Assembly (NCBI GenBank): GCA_964573185.1
Contig: CAZNIQ010000004.1
Location: 3,679 to 35,678, forward strand
Length of the DNA stretch: 32,000 nucleotides
Reading direction: 5' to 3'
From: Candidatus Woesearchaeota archaeon
GTDB lineage: Archaea > Nanobdellota > Nanobdellia > Nanobdellales > CAZNIQ01
Part shown: one piece after another, positions 1,956 through 32,000 of the stretch
How the letters are laid out: the number at the start of each line of letters is the position of its first letter
How positions within the stretch are numbered: position 1 is the stretch's first letter
Program-made: the position numbers and the translations under genes
The notes under the pieces: generated by a model
Seen by the model: the letters and a program-made list of their open reading frames with translations, nothing else
What the model was told of the DNA's origin: nothing
The model's database searches: none

Positions 1956-3032
1956 ATGGTACTATACATAGGCTTCTTAAAAGCAGTTTTACAAGATTCT
2001 CTTTCTTTCAAAAAATCTTATACTACAAAAAAATACAAGTTTTATTTGGAAGGAGAAAAGGATAATACATATTATTATAGAACCTATATTTTACCTAAAG
2101 TAAAAGGAAGTGTTGTGTCTTTTCCCATTCTTTTAGGTACTATAAAGCTTAAGAGAATAGAAAAAACAAATATTTTGATTGTAGAGATAAATCCTAAATC
2201 TGGTAGAGAAAAGGAAGATATAAAGAAAGCTTATTCCTCACTTGTAAAAAGTCTGCCAGGTATTTATTATATAAACAGTTATATTATTTTTTCAGAATTT
2301 TTCAAAAGATATTTGAAGGGAATACTTTCAGAGTACAATCTCTATATTCAAAAAATCGATTTTTTATACATTACTAAATACGGTAAAATAGGAGAATACA
2401 AAGGAAAAGAGTACGTGTCAAAATATGGAAGCGTTTTAGATTTAAAAGATATTAATGAACTTTATGAAGATTTAAAAAGAAAGGGTATTGAAAAAATAAT
2501 ACCGTATGTTTTTTCAATAACAGATCGTAAGTTTCCTATAGCAATATTTACTGTAAAAAGAAGCTTGATCGCCGTAACGGATTATGGATTAAGAAAATAT
2601 GAAGAGGTAATTGAACAGATTAAAAATAAGATTATTGAACTGGTTTTAAAAATAGAAAATATATCTAAATATAAAACAGGAAATCGAGTCAATAACAAGT
2701 TTGCAACTTCCAGTACAATAGATATAATTAAAGAAGAATACTATTTTGTTAGAAATTCCTATTTAAGCCTATTAAAAAAAGAAGAATTATTAAAGTTGGA
2801 AGAAGCTATATTGAGCAACCCTATTAGCTACTTCATTGCAGAGGATAAAGAAGGAAGGATTGATATAATATCACTAAGGAAAGAGGGAGATAACGTAGAA
2901 ATATATGTAACGCCATTTGATTTATTTAGAAATACAGTATCACCTGTTATAATAGATAAGTGGGAAGCTCTCAGATATATTACATACTCGGAAAATGATG
3001 ATCTCTTCAGAAATATTCAAAAAATTACTTGA
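1956..3032 (+). CDS. hypothetical protein (element cargo 1)
   Basis: 358-aa ORF with an ATG start. It overlaps the next ORF by 38 nt, which suggests an operon. No motif was recognised. Confidence 0.6.
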   Translation: MVLYIGFLKAVLQDSLSFKKSYTTKKYKFYLEGEKDNTYYYRTYILPKVKGSVVSFPILLGTIKLKRIEKTNILIVEINPKSGREKEDIKKAYSSLVKSLPGIYYINSYIIFSEFFKRYLKGILSEYNLYIQKIDFLYITKYGKIGEYKGKEYVSKYGSVLDLKDINELYEDLKRKGIEKIIPYVFSITDRKFPIAIFTVKRSLIAVTDYGLRKYEEVIEQIKNKIIELVLKIENISKYKTGNRVNNKFATSSTIDIIKEEYYFVRNSYLSLLKKEELLKLEEAILSNPISYFIAEDKEGRIDIISLRKEGDNVEIYVTPFDLFRNTVSPVIIDKWEALRYITYSENDDLFRNIQKIT

Positions 3033-3984
3033 AAATTATAAATACGAAATTATTGATTTTTATTTTTATAATTTAATATTTTTGGGTAGTCTGGCTTCAG
3101 CTATAATTGCAGGAAAATATTATCCTATTGAAATAGAGAAAAATGGAAAATACGATATTTTAGTAGAATTAGATGATAGAACTTTAGATTTTGAAATTAC
3201 AAGAATAATTAGCTCCTCCAACAGAGAGAAGTTAATAGATTATATAAACAAGAAAAAACGCGCTGCAGAAGAGATAAAGGCTACTCCTGTATTAGTAGTA
3301 TTGGTAGAAGAAGGTAACAAGGATCTTTTTGAAATAAAGAAAGTTTTAGATGATTCAAAACTTTCCTACATCATTGCAAAATTTAAAATAGAAAAGGATT
3401 ATGATATATTTATAGATTTTGAAACGTATACAGAAGATCTTATTATTAAAGATATTTTTGAATTTATTAAAAATATTCATAAAAGAGTAACCAAAACTCC
3501 CCCCGATACCCTTAGAGCGCTGTTATTAAAACTTCCCTTTATTCAAGATTTTGAATCAAAGCCAGATTACGAAATTCTAACCTTAGTTTCAATTTTTAAT
3601 CATCTTTATTATGTTATAAAAAGTTTTAGAGATATAAACATAGAGAGATATTTGTATTCCGATTTGCCAAAAGAGTTTGTTGGAATATTAAAAGAACATT
3701 TAATTAATAACCTAAGGAATTTAGATTTAGAAAGAAAGGACATTGAAAATTACATAGAGCTTTTTATTGAAAATTCAAAAATTCGAGAACGAATTGAAAG
3801 AATATTTAAATATCGTCTATATTATAGAATTCGGGATTTTTGTCGGGATCTTAAAAAGTTATCTGAAAATAAAATTAAGAAATGTTTAGAGAAGCTTATA
3901 GAAGTAAAAGAGTGCTACGAAAAAGATGATAATAAAAATAAAAGAAAATACAAAGAGTGTTTAAAGAGGATCCTTGGAATCTAA
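2995..3984 (+). CDS. hypothetical protein (element cargo 2)
   Basis: 329-aa ORF. The N-terminal segment KYDILVELDDRTLDFEITRI weakly resembles a PD-(D/E)xK core, but this is not demonstrable by eye. Confidence 0.6.
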   Translation: MMISSEIFKKLLENYKYEIIDFYFYNLIFLGSLASAIIAGKYYPIEIEKNGKYDILVELDDRTLDFEITRIISSSNREKLIDYINKKKRAAEEIKATPVLVVLVEEGNKDLFEIKKVLDDSKLSYIIAKFKIEKDYDIFIDFETYTEDLIIKDIFEFIKNIHKRVTKTPPDTLRALLLKLPFIQDFESKPDYEILTLVSIFNHLYYVIKSFRDINIERYLYSDLPKEFVGILKEHLINNLRNLDLERKDIENYIELFIENSKIRERIERIFKYRLYYRIRDFCRDLKKLSENKIKKCLEKLIEVKECYEKDDNKNKRKYKECLKRILGI

Positions 3985-4161: not shown

Positions 4162-4359
4162 TTAAATCTTGTCTATTCTATAGAAGAGATCCTTGATGTG
4201 GCTTTCAGAGAGATTCCGGGTTACCAACCAATAGTAGAATTCATCGAGAAGATCCAAATTTACAGAAACAAATAAATACTGACGAAATATTGAAAAGTTT
4301 GAAATTGTTTGAATGGGCTTGGGACCCGGTGACCCGGGTTCAAATCCCGGCGGCCCCAT
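4162..4359 (-). pseudogene. integrase fragment starting in attR, covering only the SAM-like/core-binding region, with the catalytic domain missing
   Basis: The ORF reads MGPPGFEPGSPGPKPIQ...FRQYLFVSVNLDLLDEFYYWLVTRNLSESHIKDLFYRIDKI*. Downstream to about 3990 only short, stop-interrupted frames remain (TFKFSKVKSKDEHL*, EVIKISKGEVK*, VIQEVAREKVGKIIKLYRKHIF...). Confidence 0.6.
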
Positions 4360-4364
4360 TAGAT
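4313..4364 (+). repeat. attR: a 3' fragment of tRNA-Pro (anticodon loop through discriminator) plus 6 nt
   Basis: The sequence is ATGGG-CTTGGGA-CCCGG-TGAC-CCGGG-TTCAAAT-CCCGG-CGGCCCC-A. It has no acceptor 5' strand and no D arm. The loop carries UGG rather than CGG. Confidence 0.8.
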
Positions 4365-11399: not shown

Positions 11400-12104
11400 A
11401 TGAAGGCACTTATTCTTGCGGGTGGTTTTGGAAAAAGACTGAGACCTTTGACAGAAGAGAAACCAAAACCTTTAATTGAAATTAAAGGAAAACCTATTAT
11501 CCTCTGGCAAATAGAATGGTTAAAGAAGTACGGAATAAAAGAGGTAATCCTAGCTGTAGGGTACAAAAAGGAGAAATTCTTTGAGTATCTGGGATCTGGA
11601 AAAAGATTTGGTATAAAAATAGCATATGTTGTGGAGGAGGAACCTTTAGGAACTGCAGGAGCTATAAAGAATGCGGAACACTTATTAAAAAATGAAAAGT
11701 TCTTTTTTGTTCTAAATGGAGATATTTTGACAAATATTAATTTAATGAAAATGCTGGAGATCGCTGAAAAAACGGAATATTATGGATATATTGCCTTGGT
11801 TCCGATGAAAAGCCCATACGGAATTGTAGAGTTAAATGATAAAAATGAAATAATAAATTTTATTGAAAAACCGATATTAGAACATTTATTAATTAACGCT
11901 GGGATATACCTATTCAGACCGGAAGTTTTTGACTATTTACCAGAAAAAGGAGATATTGAAAAACAAGGCTTTCCGGAATTAGCTAAAGATAAAAAATTAT
12001 ATGGAATTGTTTTTAGAAACTACTTTTGGAAGAGTATAGATACTATAAAAGATAAAGAAGAAGTAGAAAAATTAGATATCAACAACGCACTCGGCCTTCC
12101 ATAA
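11400..12104 (+). CDS. sugar-1-phosphate nucleotidyltransferase (NDP-sugar pyrophosphorylase)
   Basis: The N-terminus KALILAGGFGKRLRPLTEEKPKPL is the signature G-rich loop. 234 aa. Confidence 0.85.
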   Translation: MKALILAGGFGKRLRPLTEEKPKPLIEIKGKPIILWQIEWLKKYGIKEVILAVGYKKEKFFEYLGSGKRFGIKIAYVVEEEPLGTAGAIKNAEHLLKNEKFFFVLNGDILTNINLMKMLEIAEKTEYYGYIALVPMKSPYGIVELNDKNEIINFIEKPILEHLLINAGIYLFRPEVFDYLPEKGDIEKQGFPELAKDKKLYGIVFRNYFWKSIDTIKDKEEVEKLDINNALGLP

Positions 12105-12542
12105 TCCTTCTTTTACTTTTTCTACATTCATCTCATTATAAGTTATAGCTTTCACTTCTTTTCCTCTCCCATGCTTTTCAGGATTATACTTTTCTCCTTT
12201 AATTTTAAATCTGCAGTACCAAACTCTTATCTTTTTATTATTTACCTTTTTCTCTTTCCTCCTCAAATTCTTTATTTTAACATCTCCTATAGCAAAATTA
12301 TCTATATAAAAAATATCTAGAATCTGCGTTAGAAAATCATATAGAGTTGAAATTATATCTTCTGATTCAAATTCAAATTCTTTTTCTTCTTTGAGTTCCA
12401 CTTTCGAAACATCGTACATAATGTTCATTATTCCTAAAGCCAAAGCTTCAAAAGCTCTTTTTATAGTATTTCCATAGCCAACCACTTTAATATCTGCTGT
12501 ATGTTCTTTATACTCCCAATATCTTAATCCTTGCTTTCCCAT
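12072..12542 (-). CDS. archease (tRNA ligase / tRNA methyltransferase accessory protein)
   Basis: The N-terminus YKEHTADIKVVGYGNTIKRAFEALAL and the C-terminus KAITYNEMNVEK...AECVVDI match the archease family pattern. A lysine-rich insertion is present. Confidence 0.8.
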   Translation of the reverse strand: MGKQGLRYWEYKEHTADIKVVGYGNTIKRAFEALALGIMNIMYDVSKVELKEEKEFEFESEDIISTLYDFLTQILDIFYIDNFAIGDVKIKNLRRKEKKVNNKKIRVWYCRFKIKGEKYNPEKHGRGKEVKAITYNEMNVEKVKEGLWKAECVVDI

Positions 12543-13516: not shown

Positions 13517-13573
13517 TGTACCCCGGGACAGAGATCGGTGATCACAAATCCCACCGACGTCGCGGCCCGGGGC
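13517..13573 (-). ncRNA. H/ACA box guide sRNA candidate, fused upstream of the C/D sRNA
   Basis: Minus strand: 7-bp lower stem CCCCGGG/CCCGGGG. Pocket strands CCGCGACG and UCUCUGU. 6-bp upper stem UCGGUG/CACCGA. K-loop GGAUUUGUGAU with tandem G.A pairs. ACA at 13519-13517 lies 1 nt after the stem. The C box begins 3 nt later. Confidence 0.6.
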
Positions 13574-13597
13574 TTTTATATATATTTATATAAAAGT

Positions 13598-16324: not shown

Positions 16325-16923
16325 ATTCGAATTTCTTCTGCGAACCCAGAATTTATTAACATTTCGGCTACATCTTTTGGTAACGTAACTATCTCTTCTG
16401 GTTTATAAGGCCCATAGGTTTGTAGATCTGTACCGACGAACTCGGATATCTCCTTTACAATTCTAACAACTTTTACATTTCTCTCTTTTGGCAAACCAGA
16501 TGCTTTTAGTATTTTATTCAATTCCTTTCCTAATTCTTCTAATTTTGGTTTTTCTCCAGAAAGAACTGATTCTAAAACATATTTTCTAAAAGCTAATAAA
16601 GTATTAAAAAGTATTTTATATAATACTTTTTCCTCAATAGTTAATTTATCAATATCTTCGCTTTCAGATTTTAATCTTGAAGTTATCAATGCTAATTCTA
16701 ATATCTTTTTTTCCCTTAAATCATAAATATCTCTTATCAATAATTTCAAGTTTTCAAGTTCTATTCTAAGTTTTTTCAGCTCTTCCGTATCTATTTCCTT
16801 TACTTTCTCAATAATTCTGTTTAGTCTACTTATTTGATCTGCTACCTTTCTGTAAAATAGCTCATCCAATTTTTGGATACTTCTTAGATTTTTCTCCTTT
16901 TGATAAATTGAGAATAAGTTCAT
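16321..16923 (-). CDS. GINS complex subunit (Gins51-like)
   Basis: The C-terminal domain VRIVKEISEFVGTDLQTYGPYKPEEIVTLPKDVAEMLINSGFAEEI matches the Gins51 pattern. The gene lies next to the primase gene, as in other archaea. Confidence 0.65.
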   Translation of the reverse strand: MNLFSIYQKEKNLRSIQKLDELFYRKVADQISRLNRIIEKVKEIDTEELKKLRIELENLKLLIRDIYDLREKKILELALITSRLKSESEDIDKLTIEEKVLYKILFNTLLAFRKYVLESVLSGEKPKLEELGKELNKILKASGLPKERNVKVVRIVKEISEFVGTDLQTYGPYKPEEIVTLPKDVAEMLINSGFAEEIRI

Positions 16924-18266
16924 AATTTAAGTTTACCTTTTTCCTTTAAATATTTTTTATATGGATATTGTAGAGGATTTTTTATCAATTGGCAAATTTC
17001 ATCCGGTTCGCACACTCCCATATCTTTATAATAATTTTCGTTATTACAATTAGGAGGAAGATATTGCTTTTTCTTTTCTTCCCAAGTTTTTTTATGCCAC
17101 TCCCATTGATACTCTATGTATCTCTCCCTTAAAGGCTCAGGATTCCTTTCGTTCCATTCTTCTAAAAGTTGTTTAATCTCGTCCCATTCCCATCCAACAT
17201 GCTTCAAGAAGTTTATGAGAATAAATACAGCACGTTTTCTACCGTCTTCTAATCCTTGTAAGATCTTCTTAATACATGGCGGAAAATATTTTTCATCAAA
17301 TTTCTTTGGAAACTTTATTTTCTTCTTATCCTTTTGTATTTCTTCAATTATTTCTTCTCTTTCTCTTTCAGCAATAAACTCTCTCGTTAATTGTTCTAAC
17401 TTCTGTTTTTCTAATTTTTGCAATTCTTCCCATGCTAAAGCAGAATAGATTAATTCTGTAATCTCTTCTTTAACATTTTCAGTATCTAAAAATTTTGTTC
17501 CATCCCACTCATAATTATCTAAAGAAGCTTCTGATGGTTCAAAATACTTGATATCCTCTTCTCTTAAAGGAATTGAAAGCAAATTTGTTTTTTCATTTAA
17601 GGAAAAAGGCATACGGAAAAGGTGTCTAACTGAGATTAAAATGGTATCAATTGAAACTAACTTAAATACATCAAAAGAGTCTAAATTATATTTTTTAATT
17701 AATTCTTCTTCAGAAAAGTTCCTTAAAAGTTTTTTCTCTAAAGGTTCCTTAATTTTGTAAGCTATAAAAGAAGCTAAAGTTCTTGCTAAGTCTGGAAATA
17801 AATCTTTAGTTTTCTTTCCATCAAGTTCTTTAGGAAAAGCTTCCCATGGAATTGCTATATGAAAACCTTTACCTCCAGAAAACTTTATGCTATATGATTC
17901 AACGTTATAATCTTTTAATACTTTAAGAATTTCAAATAGTGCAAGTCTAGATAATTCCAAATCTTTTCCATCAATATCTATAATAAAATCCCAGCCTATT
18001 CTTAATTCATTTAACTCTTTTTTCTTCATTTTTGGAGATAACAACATTGGATCCTTCCATCTTTCCTCCGAAATATGAAAAGATATTGCTTTTTGTTTAA
18101 TCAACTCTAATATATCTCCTTCATTTTGGAGAATAAATGGTCTTTTTCCAAAAGCCCCAGATTCATATCTAAAAGTAAATTCTCTATTCTGAGCTACTCT
18201 AACCATCTCAGAAAGTATTTCTCTATTTTTTTGATAAAACTTTAAGAGCTTAAGCCTAATTCCCAT
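16920..18266 (-). CDS. DNA primase: PriS catalytic domain fused to a PriL-type Fe-S C-terminal domain
   Basis: The N-terminal part has the AEP motifs DFIIDIDGKD and SGGKGFHIAIPW. The C-terminal part has FPPCIKKIL...GRKRAVFILINFLKHVGW plus the cysteines PPNC, GVC and EIC, which could be Fe-S ligands. Confidence 0.8.
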   Translation of the reverse strand: MGIRLKLLKFYQKNREILSEMVRVAQNREFTFRYESGAFGKRPFILQNEGDILELIKQKAISFHISEERWKDPMLLSPKMKKKELNELRIGWDFIIDIDGKDLELSRLALFEILKVLKDYNVESYSIKFSGGKGFHIAIPWEAFPKELDGKKTKDLFPDLARTLASFIAYKIKEPLEKKLLRNFSEEELIKKYNLDSFDVFKLVSIDTILISVRHLFRMPFSLNEKTNLLSIPLREEDIKYFEPSEASLDNYEWDGTKFLDTENVKEEITELIYSALAWEELQKLEKQKLEQLTREFIAEREREEIIEEIQKDKKKIKFPKKFDEKYFPPCIKKILQGLEDGRKRAVFILINFLKHVGWEWDEIKQLLEEWNERNPEPLRERYIEYQWEWHKKTWEEKKKQYLPPNCNNENYYKDMGVCEPDEICQLIKNPLQYPYKKYLKEKGKLKL

Positions 18267-27631: not shown

Positions 27632-29974
27632 ATGCAAGAGTTAAAACTAGAAGAAGTTTTCGAATCTTTACATTCTTCTCCCCAAGGATTATCCGAAGAA
27701 GAGGCTCAAAGGAGATTAAAGATTTATGGCGAAAACACCGTTGAAAGAGAAAAACACCAACTATTAAAATTTTTAATTAGAGTTATTTTAAATCCAGTTA
27801 ATGTAATGATTTTATCTGCAGCTCTTCTATCTTTCTTAATAGGACATATCCATGATGCTTATTTTATTTTATTTCTCTTTATTTTAAACGTTTTCATAAT
27901 CTTTTATCAAGAATTTAAAAGTGAAAAGTACTTGGAGGAATTAAGAAAGAAATTGGAAAGACATGTTGAAGTTTTAAGAGATGGTAAATGGAAATGGATT
28001 CCCGCAAGATATATTGTACCGGGAGATATTGTAAGATTGAATGCAGGTGAAACTGTTCCTGCTGATATAAAAATAATAGAAGCAGAAAATCTTTTAGTTG
28101 ACGAATCTGCAATAACTGGTGAATCTTTACCTGTAGAAAAAAGTGTTGGTGATGTTCTATATGCTCCAAGCATAATTAAGAGAGGTAAATGTATTGGTAT
28201 AGTCGTTGCTACCGGAATTCATGCAAAATACGGTCAATTAATAAATTTAGTTCAAACAACGAAAAGCAAAAGCAATTTAGAAAAAACTATATTGAAAATA
28301 GGTATTTTCTTAATGATTTTGGCTTTTACACTTATCATTACATCTTCAATAAAATTATTTCTTGAAGGTAAAAGTATTTACGATATCTTACTTTTTGATT
28401 TAGCCTTATTAGTTTCTGCTATTCCAACAGCCTTACCCGCAGTTGTCTCTTCGATTCTTTTAGTCTCTTCTTATAATTTAGCTAAAAGAAATATTTTAGT
28501 TAGAAGGTTATCCTCTGTATTTGACATAGCTCAAATGAACATGCTTTGTACCGATAAAACAGGTACATTAACTGAAAATAAGATACGATTGGATAAAATT
28601 GTTCCAGTAAATGCTACAGAAGAAGAAGTTTTGAAATACGCTTTTCTAGCTTCCGATCCTTCTTCGGGGGATCCAATAGATACCGCAATAGCGGAAAAAG
28701 TAAAAGAAAAAAGAATTGAAATAAAGGAAAAAGTAATAAAGTTCGAACCATATGATTCCGTTAGAAAATATTCTTATGCTATTTTAGAAGGAAATGTTGT
28801 TGTTAAGAAAGGGAGTCCTGAAAGGTTATTAGAAGAAATAAAAGCTCCAAAAGAATACTACGATATTTTAGATAAGCTTTATGAAGAAGGTTATAGAGTA
28901 CTTGCTGTAATTAAAAATAACGAACTTTTAGGATTCTTAGCTTTCTATGATCCACCTAGAAAGGATGCCCCTATATTTATTAAAGAGCTCAAGGATTTAG
29001 GATTAAAAATTAAGATGCTTACTGGAGATTCTAAAAAGATTGCAATAAAAGTTGCAAAAGAAGTTGGAATAGAAGGACCTGCAATAAGTAGAAAGGAAAT
29101 GTATAGAATAGCTACAAAACAACATTTTGATTTTATAGCAGAAAGATATAATATTTTTGCAGAAATTTATCCTGAAGATAAATACAGAATCGTTGAAAGT
29201 TTAAAGAAAAGGTACTATATAGGAGTTACAGGAGACGGTGTAAATGATATAGGTGCTTTCAAAGTTGCAAACGTTGGGATAGCAGTATATAACGCTGTAC
29301 AAGCTGCTAAAGAATTTGCAGATTTAATTCTAACAGCCCCAGGTCTAAAACAGTTGGTTGATGCAATAAAGGAAGCTAGAAGAGGTTTCAAGAGAATAGA
29401 AAATTATGTGATTTACAGAATAGCGGAAAATATTAGATTTCCGTTCTTTGTAACATTATCTTTGTTTTTATATGATGTAAAGCTTTCTCCAATTTTTATG
29501 CTAATGTTAACAATCCTAAATGACATTCCAATAATTGCAGTTGCTTTTGACAATGTTAATTATTCAAGAAAACCTTGCAAATTTAATTTAAGAACAATTT
29601 TAATAATTTCATTAATATTAGGTTTTATAGGAGTTTTAAATAGTTTGCTCTACTTATTCTTAATTAAAAGATACTTGCCTCTTGAGCTATTGGAAGCTTT
29701 TCTATTTCTAAAATTGCTACTTACGGGACACTTTCTGTTATTTGTTGTTAGAACTAGAGAAGAATTTTGGTTTCAAAATCCACCGAAAGGAGTTCTTCTA
29801 ATATCTACCATATCAACACAGATCATTGGAACTTTAATAATCTTGTTTCTAATTTTAGAATATTACAAAGCAAACGTAGTTTATTTGTTATTAGTTCTAT
29901 TCACATGGATCTATGCTTTCTTATGGATGAATATAACAGATTTTATTAAGGTTTTGATCTTTAGAAAAATGTGA
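27632..29974 (+). CDS. P-type cation-transporting ATPase (plasma-membrane H+-ATPase-like, P3/MJ1226-type)
   Basis: Motifs present: TGES, CTDKTGTLTENK, MLTGDS and GDGVNDIGAFKVANVGIAV. The sequence has about 10 hydrophobic segments and a PMA-like N-terminus (EEAQRRLKIYGEN). Confidence 0.85.
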   Translation: MQELKLEEVFESLHSSPQGLSEEEAQRRLKIYGENTVEREKHQLLKFLIRVILNPVNVMILSAALLSFLIGHIHDAYFILFLFILNVFIIFYQEFKSEKYLEELRKKLERHVEVLRDGKWKWIPARYIVPGDIVRLNAGETVPADIKIIEAENLLVDESAITGESLPVEKSVGDVLYAPSIIKRGKCIGIVVATGIHAKYGQLINLVQTTKSKSNLEKTILKIGIFLMILAFTLIITSSIKLFLEGKSIYDILLFDLALLVSAIPTALPAVVSSILLVSSYNLAKRNILVRRLSSVFDIAQMNMLCTDKTGTLTENKIRLDKIVPVNATEEEVLKYAFLASDPSSGDPIDTAIAEKVKEKRIEIKEKVIKFEPYDSVRKYSYAILEGNVVVKKGSPERLLEEIKAPKEYYDILDKLYEEGYRVLAVIKNNELLGFLAFYDPPRKDAPIFIKELKDLGLKIKMLTGDSKKIAIKVAKEVGIEGPAISRKEMYRIATKQHFDFIAERYNIFAEIYPEDKYRIVESLKKRYYIGVTGDGVNDIGAFKVANVGIAVYNAVQAAKEFADLILTAPGLKQLVDAIKEARRGFKRIENYVIYRIAENIRFPFFVTLSLFLYDVKLSPIFMLMLTILNDIPIIAVAFDNVNYSRKPCKFNLRTILIISLILGFIGVLNSLLYLFLIKRYLPLELLEAFLFLKLLLTGHFLLFVVRTREEFWFQNPPKGVLLISTISTQIIGTLIILFLILEYYKANVVYLLLVLFTWIYAFLWMNITDFIKVLIFRKM

Positions 29975-31296
29975 AAATAAATGTAGCGGTAATATTTCCA
30001 AACAAGAAGCATGGAGGAATTTATTCACTCGGACCTATGTATGTTGAAACTTACTTTAATTTAGATAAAAGATTTGAGGCAAAAAGATATTTTTTAGATG
30101 ATTTACCAAAAGGAAGACATCATATTTACATTTTTTCCATATCTTATGAATTGGATCTTCCAAAAGTACCAAAGATTTTAAAGAAACTTGGAATACCTCT
30201 GAATAAAGAAAAGAGAGAAGAATTAGTTATTGCTGGGGGACCTGCCGTTAGAATAAACCCTTATTATTTGAAAGATATTATTGATTTTGAAATCTTAGGT
30301 GAAGCAGAAGCAACAATTCCATATTTATATGATCCTCTATATAATTATTTTAAACATAAAAATAAGGGAAAGTTATTTGAAGAGATAAAAGATATTAACG
30401 GTATTTTTATTCCAGAGATAAAAGAAAAGGAAGAACACCCTTATATAGAAAATTTAGACGAAAGTATACATCCTATTTACCAACCCTTACCTAAAAAATT
30501 AACGAGGAAATATGTGTTTGGTAATGCTTTTATTTTAGAAGTTGCAAGATCTTGTCCTTTTAATTGCGCATTCTGTGACGTTAAATTTCTGTACAAGAAA
30601 TTTAGATTTAGATCTTTAGAAAAACTAAAGGAAATAATAAATTTAGGTTTAAAAATTAATGGGAAAAAGAAAATAGCATTGATTTCTCCTACACTTGTCC
30701 ATCCTAACCTATTTGATCTACTACATTATATTTTAGAAGAAAAGAAAACAAAATTTATGTTACCATCTTTAAGAGCTGAATTATTATTAAATGATAAGAT
30801 GTTAGAATTTATTAAGAGATCTGGTCAGAGAACTATTACATTAGCTCCAGAAACTGGATCTGAAGAATTAAGATTTCAATTGAATAAAAGAATTCCTGAT
30901 TGGGTCTTCTTTGAAATAGCTAAAAAAGCTAAAAATTACGGTATTAAAGAATTGAAGTTCTACTTTATTGTTGGGTTGCCGAATCAAGATATGGATGACG
31001 CTTATAGAATAGTGGAGTTTATTAAGAAAATAAAGGAATTATTCAAAGGGAAGATTTATGTTTCTGTAAATCCTTTTGTTCCAAAGAGAGGAAGCCTCTT
31101 AGAAAATGCTCCTTTCGATGAGAAGAAATCTAGAAAGATGATACAAATATTAAAGAAAGAATTTCGGAAATTAAAAATAAGGTATAAATTTAAGAGTATT
31201 AAAACTGCAAAGAAAGAATATTTAATTCAATGGGAACGCCGCCGCGGGGATTTGAACCCCGGACCTGCCGGTATCAACCGCCCCCACCCCGGCTAA
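29971..31296 (+). CDS. radical SAM protein (B12-binding-like N-terminus, COG1032-like)
   Basis: CxxxCxxC motif ARSCPFNCAFCDV. 441 aa. The last 20 or so codons are the antisense of the tRNA-Asn 3' exon and GC clamp. Confidence 0.7.
   Translation: MKINVAVIFPNKKHGGIYSLGPMYVETYFNLDKRFEAKRYFLDDLPKGRHHIYIFSISYELDLPKVPKILKKLGIPLNKEKREELVIAGGPAVRINPYYLKDIIDFEILGEAEATIPYLYDPLYNYFKHKNKGKLFEEIKDINGIFIPEIKEKEEHPYIENLDESIHPIYQPLPKKLTRKYVFGNAFILEVARSCPFNCAFCDVKFLYKKFRFRSLEKLKEIINLGLKINGKKKIALISPTLVHPNLFDLLHYILEEKKTKFMLPSLRAELLLNDKMLEFIKRSGQRTITLAPETGSEELRFQLNKRIPDWVFFEIAKKAKNYGIKELKFYFIVGLPNQDMDDAYRIVEFIKKIKELFKGKIYVSVNPFVPKRGSLLENAPFDEKKSRKMIQILKKEFRKLKIRYKFKSIKTAKKEYLIQWERRRGDLNPGPAGINRPHPG
31278..31293. 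repeat. GC clamp arm (inverted repeat partner of 31848-31863)
   Basis: On the plus strand, CCGCCCCCACCCCGGC here is the perfect 16/16 reverse complement of GCCGGGGTGGGGGCGG at 31848-31863. Confidence 0.9.
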
Positions 31297-31325
31297 AAAT
31301 TTAAATCTACAAAATAATTATTAAA

Positions 31326-31943
31326 ATGTTTTGGTATATTATTGGGCTTCTTGCTGGAGATGGCTATTTATATGATAGGAAATATCAAATAGGTTGGGTT
31401 TTAAATAAGAAAGAGAACGAAATTCAGAACAGAATAATAAATTTTCTCAAGGTATATCAAAGACTCGGATTTGTGAGGAAAATACATGTTATAGAGAGAA
31501 AAGATAATAGCGTTGAGATTAAAATTTATAGTAAGAGAATGTTTAACTTATTTAAGAAGTTTTGTGAAGGTAAAGGGAGATATAAAAGGATTTTAATATA
31601 TCCCAGCGAACTTGTAAAGAAAATTGAGCTGTTCTCTGGATTATTTGACGCTGAAGGTTCAGTAGTTGTATATAGAAATTCTCCCAGAGCATTTTTCGTA
31701 ACGGCATCAGAATACATTAGAGCTACTTTTGAGAAGCTATTACAAGATTTAAATATTAGATACTACATTTACAACGATAAAAGTTGTTTTAGATTTAAAT
31801 TAGCAATTACAGATTTGAGAAAAATTAATCATATGAGCATTAAGTTAGCCGGGGTGGGGGCGGTAACAGCTTCGGCCCTTTCGGTCGGCCGCTCTACCGG
31901 GCTGAGCTACGGCGGCTTTTTCAATATAACATGTTCAAAATAA
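31326..31943 (+). CDS. LAGLIDADG homing endonuclease (double-motif, monomeric type)
   Basis: Motif 1 is YIIGLLAGDGYL (D12). Motif 2 is LFSGLFDAEGSV (E110). The core is about 174 aa. The last 31 or so codons run antisense through the tRNA-Asn 5' exon. An A/T-rich TATA-like stretch at 31295-31306 lies 20-30 nt upstream of the ATG. Confidence 0.8.
   Translation: MFWYIIGLLAGDGYLYDRKYQIGWVLNKKENEIQNRIINFLKVYQRLGFVRKIHVIERKDNSVEIKIYSKRMFNLFKKFCEGKGRYKRILIYPSELVKKIELFSGLFDAEGSVVVYRNSPRAFFVTASEYIRATFEKLLQDLNIRYYIYNDKSCFRFKLAITDLRKINHMSIKLAGVGAVTASALSVGRSTGLSYGGFFNITCSK
31848..31863. repeat. GC clamp arm (inverted repeat partner of 31278-31293)
   Basis: See the partner arm. This arm lies immediately 3' of tRNA nucleotide 37 on the minus strand. 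Confidence 0.9.
31871..31885 (-). other. tRNA-Asn intron 1 (ACCGAAAGGGCCGAA), non-canonical position 30/31, with a BHB motif
   Basis: A 3-nt bulge, 4-bp helix, 3-nt bulge structure can be drawn. Cleavage after the second nucleotide of each bulge gives exactly the G30-G31 junction needed for a perfect anticodon stem. Confidence 0.6.
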
Positions 31944-31951
31944 TTTTAAAA
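31937..31951 (-). promoter_or_regulatory. TATA-like tract (TTTTAAAATTATTTT) for the tRNA-Asn 5' part
   Basis: It spans -35 to -21 relative to the first G of the tRNA (31916). Confidence 0.4.
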
Positions 31952-31963
31952 TTAATTGAAACC

Positions 31964-32000
31964 CGGGCCGGCCGGGATTTGAACCCGGGACCTCCGGGTT
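31964..32000 (-). tRNA. tRNA, 3' portion only (truncated by the window edge), identity unknown
   Basis: The minus strand reads ...AGGUC CCGGG UUCAAAU CCCGG CCGGCCC G: variable region, T arm, acceptor 3' strand and discriminator G. Confidence 0.6.

Follow-up and report, generated by a model that had tools for sequence, protein, structure and literature searches.

A stretch of 32,000 nucleotides of contig CAZNIQ010000004.1 (Candidatus Woesearchaeota archaeon, NCBI GenBank assembly GCA_964573185.1, positions 3,679 to 35,678 of the forward strand), here called the window, raises the question of how a tRNA-Asn gene came to be interrupted in its anticodon loop by a gene for a LAGLIDADG homing endonuclease on the opposite strand, and how a tRNA could still be made from it. 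Here we report an analysis of this locus. It is likely that we are looking at a mobile or recently mobile LAGLIDADG cassette which resides in intervening sequences of the bulge-helix-bulge (BHB) type in tRNA genes and would be expressed antisense to them from a promoter of its own. The locus is possibly an intermediate towards split tRNA genes.

The window has a GC content of 30.5%, and short islands of about 70% GC stand out in it. Two such islands (31230-31297 and 31844-31919) flank an AT-rich stretch that holds an open reading frame (ORF) on the + strand. On the minus strand these islands read as a single tRNA in two parts, with G1 at 31916, A37 at 31864, A38 at 31272 and the discriminator G at 31237. 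The 5' exon (31916..31864, -) consists of positions 1-30 (31886..31916, -; acceptor 5' strand, D arm and anticodon-stem 5' strand) and positions 31-37 (31864..31870, -; GCUGUUA, with the anticodon GUU), which are separated by a 15-nt mini-intron at position 30/31 (ACCGAAAGGGCCGAA, 31871..31885, -). The 3' exon (31237..31272, -) supplies positions 38-73, comprising A38, the anticodon-stem 3' strand, the variable loop, the T arm, the acceptor 3' strand and the discriminator G; CCA is not encoded. Between positions 37 and 38 lies an intervening sequence of 591 nt (31273..31863, -) with 31% GC. In the raw sequence the tRNA-Asn was called neither by ARAGORN nor by Rfam at the gathering threshold. 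After in-silico removal of the 591-nt insert and the 15-nt intron, ARAGORN called a tRNA-Asn(gtt) of 74 nt, and this call depended on removing the 15-nt insert as well, not the 591-nt insert alone.

The large insert is closed by a GC-rich clamp. Its 5'-side arm (RNA CCGCCCCCACCCCGGC, 31848..31863, -) directly follows A37, and its 3'-side arm (RNA GCCGGGGUGGGGGCGG, 31278..31293, -) is separated from A38 by the linker UUGAU (31273..31277, -), which was assigned by hand analysis and energy evaluation. The two arms form a perfect inverted repeat, 100% complementary, with a GC-rich core of 16 bp that extends to 20 bp with its flanks (31277-31296 / 31845-31864). Since bacterial tRNA genes can have group I introns in their anticodon loops, and archaeal rRNA genes contain such introns as well (PMC6125680, PMC3984707), the insert might be read as a self-splicing group I or group II intron carrying its endonuclease gene. 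However, no group I, group II or other Rfam family matched the 591-nt insert on either strand, at gathering or permissive E-values. The ORF, the spacer before it and the clamp fill all 591 nt and leave no room for a ribozyme core, and the 31% GC of the insert, the clamp apart, speaks against such a core too. The chance that the insert is such an intron is practically nil, and a group I intron was rejected for want of any Rfam match and of space for the core.

Whether the interrupted gene still serves as a tRNA gene can be judged from a diverged relative, locus L004 of NCBI assembly GCA_054017035.1, the source of a 54-aa fragment (P0002) that is 80% identical to the endonuclease of the Asn intron. 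The locus is syntenic, with a cation ATPase, a radical S-adenosylmethionine (SAM) enzyme and then tRNA-Asn; upstream of tRNA-Asn just 16 of 30 positions are identical, and the synteny stops there. Synonymous or neutral sites differ by about 41% between window and L004. The exons and the mini-intron are nevertheless identical at 89 of 89 positions (3' exon 36/36, mini-intron 100%), and each clamp arm carries a single change, the two lying at mutually paired positions (G:C to A:U). This conservation of exons, mini-intron and clamp argues that selection acts strongly on the interrupted gene for its RNA, so that it is no pseudogene, and the compensatory change in both arms that the pairing of the clamp is itself selected. 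A tRNA-Asn gene destroyed by the insertion, with another copy serving the cell, would fit the silence of the standard tRNA finders and the weakness of the Asn 37/38 BHB described below. Set against about 41% change at neutral sites, however, the 89 conserved nucleotides and the compensated clamp make it scarcely credible, as does a box A upstream of the 5' exon that scores in the top 0.24% of positions. The dead-gene explanation was rejected on exon and clamp conservation and on this strong box A. The locus is thus probably a functional tRNA-Asn(GUU) gene with a large intervening sequence of the archaeal BHB kind at 37/38, whose loop holds the LAGLIDADG gene, one of free-standing style, on the opposite strand.

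The ORF within the insert (31326..31943, +) starts with ATG, ends with a TAA at 31941-31943 followed by TTTT, and encodes a monomeric, double-motif LAGLIDADG homing endonuclease of 205 aa. In DNA of 30% GC, an ORF 174-205 codons long would arise by chance with a probability of about 5e-7 to 4e-8. The protein holds two motifs, IIGLLAGDGYL (with D12) and FSGLFDAEGSV (with E110). The preliminary description of this DNA had recognized the family from the cores of these motifs, GLLAGDGYL and GLFDAEGSV, and had proposed a profile search and a structure prediction as checks. Both bear the assignment out. Pfam LAGLIDADG_3 matches residues 101-156 (E=2.4e-9; 37.7 bits against a cut-off of 22.5). The best match among PDB sequences is I-DmoI, in whose alignment D12 and E110 fall on the acidic residues that end both LAGLIDADG helices. 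An AlphaFold2 model from 21 sequences (predicted local distance difference test score, pLDDT, 84.4; predicted template modelling score 0.79) has the order alpha-beta-beta-alpha-beta-beta-alpha twice, and Foldseek against PDB ranks I-Tsp061I first (E=2.8e-9, template modelling score 0.70) and I-DmoI next (about 2e-8). In the alignments with relatives, G7, D12, G13, G105 and G111 vary little or not at all, D12 being nearly invariant, and every aligned relative has D or E at position 110. Judged by sequence and model, the protein is an intact monomeric LAGLIDADG enzyme of the archaeal intron type (I-DmoI/I-Tsp061I-like) with both catalytic acidic residues kept. The identical protein is present in three assemblies (ENA, JGI, Logan), which, together with the same locus in the diverged GCA_054017035.1, argues that the locus is not an assembly artefact.

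The antisense orientation of the gene relative to tRNA-Asn is confirmed. It recurs in the intron of the adjacent tRNA-Lys gene, while those relatives in rRNA introns whose context could be read are in sense orientation. The ATG lies 32 nt from the clamp, as had been noted. According to the same description, antisense tRNA makes up about the final 31 codons. This holds in part: 31 codons do extend beyond the intron loop, but about 5 of them are clamp, about 18 are tRNA proper (the 5' exon including the mini-intron), and 8 (24 nt) are the tRNA promoter region. The folded core of the enzyme covers approximately aa 1-170, and codons 175-205 cross the clamp, the 5' exon and the tRNA promoter; residues 187-205, which are antisense tRNA and promoter, have a pLDDT below 50 in the AlphaFold2 model. 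On the other side of the insert, a radical SAM gene (29971-31296, +) runs antisense through the entire tRNA-Asn 3' exon and the clamp, with its TAA right past the clamp, and this read-through of the 3' exon is also seen in L004. Because the GC-rich tRNA sequence has no stop codons, flanking + strand ORFs run across it, and the C-terminal tail of the endonuclease is probably explained by the same passive read-through.

In L004 the endonuclease copy is broken by a TGA stop, by an insertion of 14 nt and by two deletions, one of 3 nt and one of 32 nt. Window and L004 share 79% identity over the ORF region, and the differences fall on codon positions 1, 2 and 3 in numbers of 20, 14 and 67. This bias points to purifying selection on the protein through most of the divergence, followed by recent death of the gene in L004. 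As that lineage has lost the endonuclease and kept the tRNA and the intron, the protein appears dispensable for tRNA-Asn and its intron. An intact copy in one lineage and a decayed one in the other is the pattern expected of the homing-endonuclease life cycle. The protein could instead have been domesticated, for example as a maturase-like splicing helper or a DNA-binding regulator that no longer homes. Its long purifying selection, paired with the failure to find other copies or empty sites, would agree with this, and LAGLIDADG maturases and WhiA-type regulators do exist and are present among the Foldseek fold matches. But both catalytic acidic residues are kept, the sister lineage lost the gene while its tRNA and intron were perfectly kept, and the copy in the Lys intron has decayed likewise; we therefore regard domestication as improbable. 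A stretch of 15 kb from the sister contig held no further interrupted tRNA. In the same assembly, about 5 kb from the tRNA-Asn locus, the gene for the DNA polymerase D large subunit (L012 41-5014, -) carries an intein with a LAGLIDADG_3 domain.

The neighbouring tRNA-Lys(UUU) gene repeats the arrangement at another position. Its 3' exon (31964..32000, -), in the GC island 31957-32000, is cut by the end of the window, and the gene was followed on the ENA contig L001, which extends beyond that end (L001 coordinate = window coordinate - 21325). The intron of 654 nt (L001 10682-11335, -) sits at position 30/31 and has a GC clamp of 12-13 bp. This tRNA is likewise missed by ARAGORN and Rfam in the unspliced sequence, and once the 654-nt insert was removed in silico, ARAGORN called a tRNA-Lys(ttt) of 74 nt. 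The intron holds a LAGLIDADG gene on the + strand, again antisense, with two frameshifts, which is called as fragments of 104 aa and 81 aa. The frameshift-repaired protein matches Pfam at E=7e-12 (45.8 bits), and its TAG stands immediately before the clamp. It shares only 20% identity with the Asn endonuclease, and its C-terminal part resembles P0061, a protein from a 582-nt contig with uninformative flanks. Two different endonuclease lineages thus occupy two adjacent tRNA genes, both antisense. A weak Rfam match to the tRNA-like YrlA (L001 10528-10690, -) spans the Lys 3' exon and the Asn 5' exon; it is probably a meaningless chimeric tRNA-like signal from the juxtaposed halves.

This second insert also bears on another explanation, in which a small DNA transposon or cassette landed in the tRNA gene with the LAGLIDADG gene as cargo, the arms are its terminal inverted repeats, and their pairing has no function in RNA. 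The preliminary description had offered this alternative, and a perfect 20-nt inverted repeat bracketing a single gene is what it would lead one to look for. There is, however, no target-site duplication beside the arms and no transposase, and the arms begin exactly where excision leaves a complete anticodon loop. The Lys insert has other arm sequences with the same RNA geometry at 30/31, including a central helix of 4 Watson-Crick bp, and the perfect conservation of the exons means that the interrupted gene must still yield tRNA. Mobility of LAGLIDADG genes is independent of terminal repeats. We consider such a cassette highly improbable, and it was rejected on the missing target duplication, the placement of the arms for an RNA helix at the splice sites and the paired change in L004.

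In a canonical BHB, two 3-nt bulges separated by a 4-bp helix lie at the exon-intron junctions. The three junctions at this locus can be drawn as BHBs with canonical pairs, except for one unpaired U.U in the Asn 37/38 model, and none of the three registers is the minimum-energy fold of its mini-substrate. The mini-intron and the Lys junction come out as good or near-canonical. For the mini-intron the central helix has 4 bp (CGGC/GCCG), the bulges are CG|A and AA|G, and the hairpin is CC-GAAA-GG, all with canonical pairs only. At the Lys 30/31 junction the bulges are GG|A(C) and AG|G, and four Watson-Crick pairs form the central helix (C25-C28 with GGCG). In the case of Asn 37/38, the linker UUGAU and the last clamp G supply the central-helix strand GUUG and the bulge AU|A38. 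The 4+3 lengths fit on both strands, and the central helix is weak (C:G, U.U, G.U, U.G). Relaxed BHB motifs have been reported for joined tRNA halves of Nanoarchaeum equitans (PMC4033280), and tRNA-Lys(CUU), a split tRNA in N. equitans and Staphylothermus, is likewise joined at 30/31, with a 13-nt pairing (PMC3218864). The Asn mini-intron, read as A, CC-GAAA-GG, the complement of positions 25-28, and AA, looks like the outline of a collapsed insert of the Lys type. An archease gene, for a cofactor of the RtcB tRNA-splicing ligase, is the one component of the splicing machinery seen in the window (12072-12542, -) and is consistent with an active tRNA splicing pathway.

The question of how the endonuclease gene and the tRNA parts would be transcribed was approached with a 10-nt promoter matrix trained upstream of 5 tRNA 5' ends and 23 ORF starts of this genome. 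The matrix converged on (T/A)TTTAAA(A/T), and scores were ranked against a background of all positions on both strands. Relative to most ATGs (about 20 ORFs) box A starts at -28 to -31, a distance that implies leaderless mRNAs; relative to +1 of the 5 tRNAs it starts at -31 to -35. The trained motif agrees with the box A of N. equitans, TTTAAA, 26 nt upstream of a GC-rich transcript start (PMC3491384). All five tRNA genes (window 1196, 27504 and 31916; L001 11366 and 14731) start with G and have their box A at -31 to -35. This suggests that tRNA and mRNA transcripts are leaderless, as in N. equitans. That archaeon is without RNase P.

The box A of the tRNA-Asn 5' half (TTTTAAAATT, 31942..31951, -) scores 8.6 bits with its start at -35, in the top 0.24%; two of its bases are the final two of the stop codon of the endonuclease gene, and it covers the T-run beyond. 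At the other end of the insert, the AT-rich 32-nt spacer (31294..31325) between clamp and ATG carries box A-like elements in both directions. The element facing the endonuclease ATG (ATTTAAATCT, +) scores 5.7 bits, starts at -27 and lies in the top 4%. The spacer is identical to L004 at 27 of 28 positions despite the synonymous divergence, so that the earlier proposal of a promoter-like tract of the gene's own receives modest support. The element facing the clamp and the Asn 3' half (TTTAATAATT, -) scores 4.95 bits with its start at -32 from the clamp (top 7%). In the Lys gene the corresponding values are 4.2 bits at -32 for the first ATG of the endonuclease gene (top 12%), 6.0 bits at -30 for the 3' half (top 3.3%) and 7.4 bits at -32 for the 5' half (top 1.2%). 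Both inserts therefore have a spacer of 32-34 nt with a box A-like element at each end facing the opposite end. The joint background chance is about 0.005 for the elements of both endonuclease genes and about 0.002 for those of both 3' halves. In L004 the inward element of the endonuclease is mutated from TTTAAAT to TTCAAAT (1.85 bits, top 30%) and the outward one is unchanged, a difference that is no more than suggestive, coming as it does from a single comparison in an AT-rich genome. The outward-facing box A, like the mini-intron at 30/31 and the tRNA-Lys case, goes beyond what the preliminary description had noticed.

These outward elements raise the possibility that the two genes are adjacent split tRNA genes, whose halves are separate transcription units with their own box A and are spliced in trans as in N. 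equitans, the endonuclease gene filling the gap. We treat this as a serious contender, somewhat short of evenly likely; it differs from the preferred reading of a mobile cassette in a BHB-type intron in the RNA route only and concerns the same element. In its favour are the box A-like elements upstream of both 3'-half clamps with their low joint chance, and the survival of the Asn outward element in L004, where the endonuclease gene and its box A have decayed. T-runs follow the 5' clamps within 3-28 nt, and the tRNA-sense strand of the insert holds additional runs of T5 or longer. The design resembles that of the N. equitans halves with their GC-rich transcript start and upstream box A (PMC3491384), and the adjacent halves of tRNA-Asp in Aeropyrum pernix are reported to be separately transcribed (PMC3218864). 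On the other hand, the intron-like order, strand and proximity of the parts have been kept across the synonymous divergence from L004, although synteny breaks just outside the gene. TATA-like strings are common in 30% GC DNA, and runs of T3-T5 are equally common after true tRNA 3' ends and inside genes. T-run counts on the two strands of the inserts do not discriminate between transcription for splicing in cis and in trans. The halves are contiguous, ordered and on one strand, not at the separate loci by which split tRNA genes are recognized, although such adjacency has a single precedent in A. pernix (PMC3218864).

To place the endonuclease among its relatives, a filter-free HMMER scan of 1.84e9 representative proteins was used; it returned 25 matches at E<=1e-3, all LAGLIDADG proteins aligned over residues 2-160, i.e. 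both domains, at 22-39% identity, and as a separate match the 80%-identical fragment P0002. In the comparison with the archaeal rRNA-intron endonucleases, the identity to any relative was put at no more than 33%. A profile search gave 39 relatives, which belong mostly to a DPANN family of enzymes of about 180 aa. Among them P0004, P0016 and P0053 are genes of 16S or 23S rRNA introns, read in the sense direction, and P0057 adjoins the 3' end of a small-subunit rRNA gene; among the readable contexts, no relative lies inside a tRNA intron. One distant relative, P0019 (L008 573-1208, +), is a free-standing LAGLIDADG gene between intron-bearing tRNAs of the opposite strand (321-437, - and about 1172-1290, -), its C-terminus reading into the antisense T arm of one of them, and may show what tRNA-associated endonucleases look like at a free-standing stage. 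Scanning metagenomes with the endonuclease protein returned the same JGI contig only, a word-indexed homologue search with either endonuclease the query itself only, and viral-contig scans with both were negative. A 28-nt pattern of the Asn 3' exon matched, in the genome collection, only an unrelated tRNA-Arg(TCG) in a metagenome-assembled genome labelled Woesearchaeota.

A mobile origin of the interruption, which had been suggested from the presence of the endonuclease, keeps its circumstantial support: two endonuclease genes in two tRNAs, and intact beside decayed copies. Several observations weigh against it, or against other parts of the reading as a mobile, antisense-expressed cassette in a BHB-type intron. 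No empty site was met with, an exact 42-mer for an uninterrupted tRNA-Asn allele with this 3' exon giving 0 matches in JGI metagenomes. The protein, metagenome and viral-contig scans returned no second copy or close relative of either endonuclease beyond the same locus, so the search for the ORF at other loci came out empty and current mobility is conjectural. The Lys BHB requires a 4-nt bulge or a slipped C, and at the Asn junction the mini-substrate can instead form a continuous helix (U33-A37 with UGAUA; UGUUA/UGAUA), which competes with the BHB register and exceeds it in stability by 14 kcal/mol. The promoter scores are just modestly above background in a genome of 30% GC. Finally, an ORF tail antisense to clamp and exon could be deleterious, or translation may end elsewhere.

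Taken as a mobile cassette, the element would work at two levels. The mRNA of the endonuclease would be leaderless, started by the box A in the 32-nt spacer, and would run outward through the 5' exon to the TAA and its T-run. At the DNA level the enzyme would cut intron-less tRNA-Asn alleles near the anticodon loop, and repair would copy the entire cassette of clamp, spacer and gene into the cut allele; in such homing the orientation of the gene is irrelevant. In RNA, pairing of the GC-rich arms would place the exon ends side by side, the tRNA splicing endonuclease would cut at 37/38, and an RtcB-type ligase would join the exons. These may be made as one precursor of 680 nt or as two RNAs, in which case the outward-facing box A would drive the second, with its start at the clamp. 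Once the cassette is fixed, the endonuclease gene would decay, as in the Lys intron and the sister lineage, and the insert may end as a mini-intron like the 15-nt one at 30/31.

A wider and more speculative proposal, which we put forward tentatively and would hesitate to back as a whole, holds that these are the first homing-endonuclease-bearing mobile introns in archaeal tRNA genes, that their antisense, self-promoted cassette brings along a bidirectional promoter which also fires into the 3' half, and that the locus is a living intermediate from intron to split gene. Invasion at 37/38 and 30/31, followed by decay and by collapse or rearrangement, would then be the origin of the short non-canonical tRNA introns and of the split tRNAs of Nanoarchaeum, including tRNA-Lys at 30/31. 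The origin of archaeal tRNA introns at many positions and of split halves has been debated since 2005, with splits seen either as an ancestral relic or as derived through mobile elements or rearrangement, and the agent has so far only been inferred. Here a candidate agent is available in three states: intact in the Asn intron, recently dead in the sister Asn intron and long dead in the Lys intron at 30/31. In the 15-nt mini-intron at 30/31 this process seems to have reached its end state. As tRNA finders miss such genes, the "missing" tRNAs of small archaeal genomes may hide more cases.

Elsewhere, the window has genes of archaeal information processing. One of them is for a fused PriS-PriL primase (16920-18266, -), a single protein of 447 aa that matches both the small and the large primase subunit families. 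Such a fusion is known from Nanoarchaeum, and together with GC-rich tRNAs in a 30% GC genome it points to a nanoarchaeote-like hyperthermophile. At 4309-4360 (+) a tRNA-Pro(TGG) is represented by a 3' portion alone (approximately positions 27-73); a 5' part and a GC clamp are missing. This portion nearly repeats the 3' part of the intact tRNA-Pro(CGG) at 1196-1266, 3 kb upstream. The ORFs between the two copies (1956-3032 and 2995-3984) have no Pfam match. The partial copy may mark the border of an integrated element as an att-type duplication, or it may belong to another disrupted tRNA as its 3' half. At 13540-13580, between ORFs, a GC-rich island (GATCACAAATCCCACCGACGTCGCGGCCCGGGGC...) stands isolated; it matches no Rfam family at the gathering threshold and is possibly a small RNA.

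Several known systems share parts of this architecture. In nuclear group I introns of protists and algae, homing endonuclease genes are likewise found antisense to the host RNA gene, but these enzymes are eukaryotic, of the His-Cys box type, and sit in ribozyme introns of rDNA. I-Ssp6803I is the enzyme of the cyanobacterial tRNA-fMet intron. Bacterial and organellar group I introns of tRNA genes also place a homing endonuclease gene in an anticodon-loop intron (PMC3984707), but they are self-splicing ribozymes with ORFs in sense orientation, whereas the insert described here has no ribozyme signature and must use protein enzymes. Closest in the protein are the LAGLIDADG enzymes of archaeal rRNA introns (I-DmoI, I-Tsp061I, I-PorI and the DPANN 16S/23S ORFs), which have the same fold, size and two-motif monomeric build and the same BHB-type host intron with a helix beside the splice sites. 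Homing and a life cycle of invasion, decay and loss have been described for rRNA-intron endonucleases (PMC4496867). The present case differs from them in that the host is a tRNA and that the ORF is antisense, with its own box A-like element, and runs out through the exon. No endonuclease gene in an archaeal tRNA intron was found reported in the open-access full-text literature, subscription journals being outside its scope, and homing endonucleases go unmentioned in two reviews that deal with tRNA introns and disrupted tRNA genes.

Among tRNA genes themselves, related BHB introns occur at various positions in different archaeal tRNAs, which implies intron mobility (PMC4033280). These short introns carry no ORF and the mechanism of their spread is unexplained, whereas the inserts here carry mutually unrelated endonuclease genes. 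The split tRNAs of N. equitans and the tRNA-Lys(CUU) of Staphylothermus share with the present loci complementary GC-rich stretches of 12-16 nt, one trailing the 5' half and one leading the 3' half, the junctions 37/38 and (Lys) 30/31, the relaxed BHB, and a box A about 26-30 nt before the GC stretch (PMC3491384, PMC3218864, PMC4033280). Unlike the N. equitans splits, the halves here are contiguous, in intron order, on one strand and 591-654 nt apart, with a homing endonuclease gene between them. Here the interrupted tRNA-Lys is the UUU isoacceptor, and the known split tRNAs do not include Asn. A further parallel is tRNA-Asp(GUC) of A. pernix, in which adjacent halves on the same strand are divided at 37/38 and a promoter lies inside the 'intron' at a GC-rich leader (PMC3218864). 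Its spacer of 121 nt holds no gene, and Chan, Cozen and Lowe (2011), who described it, inferred an unknown viral or mobile agent (PMC3218864); at the locus described here a candidate for such an agent is present.

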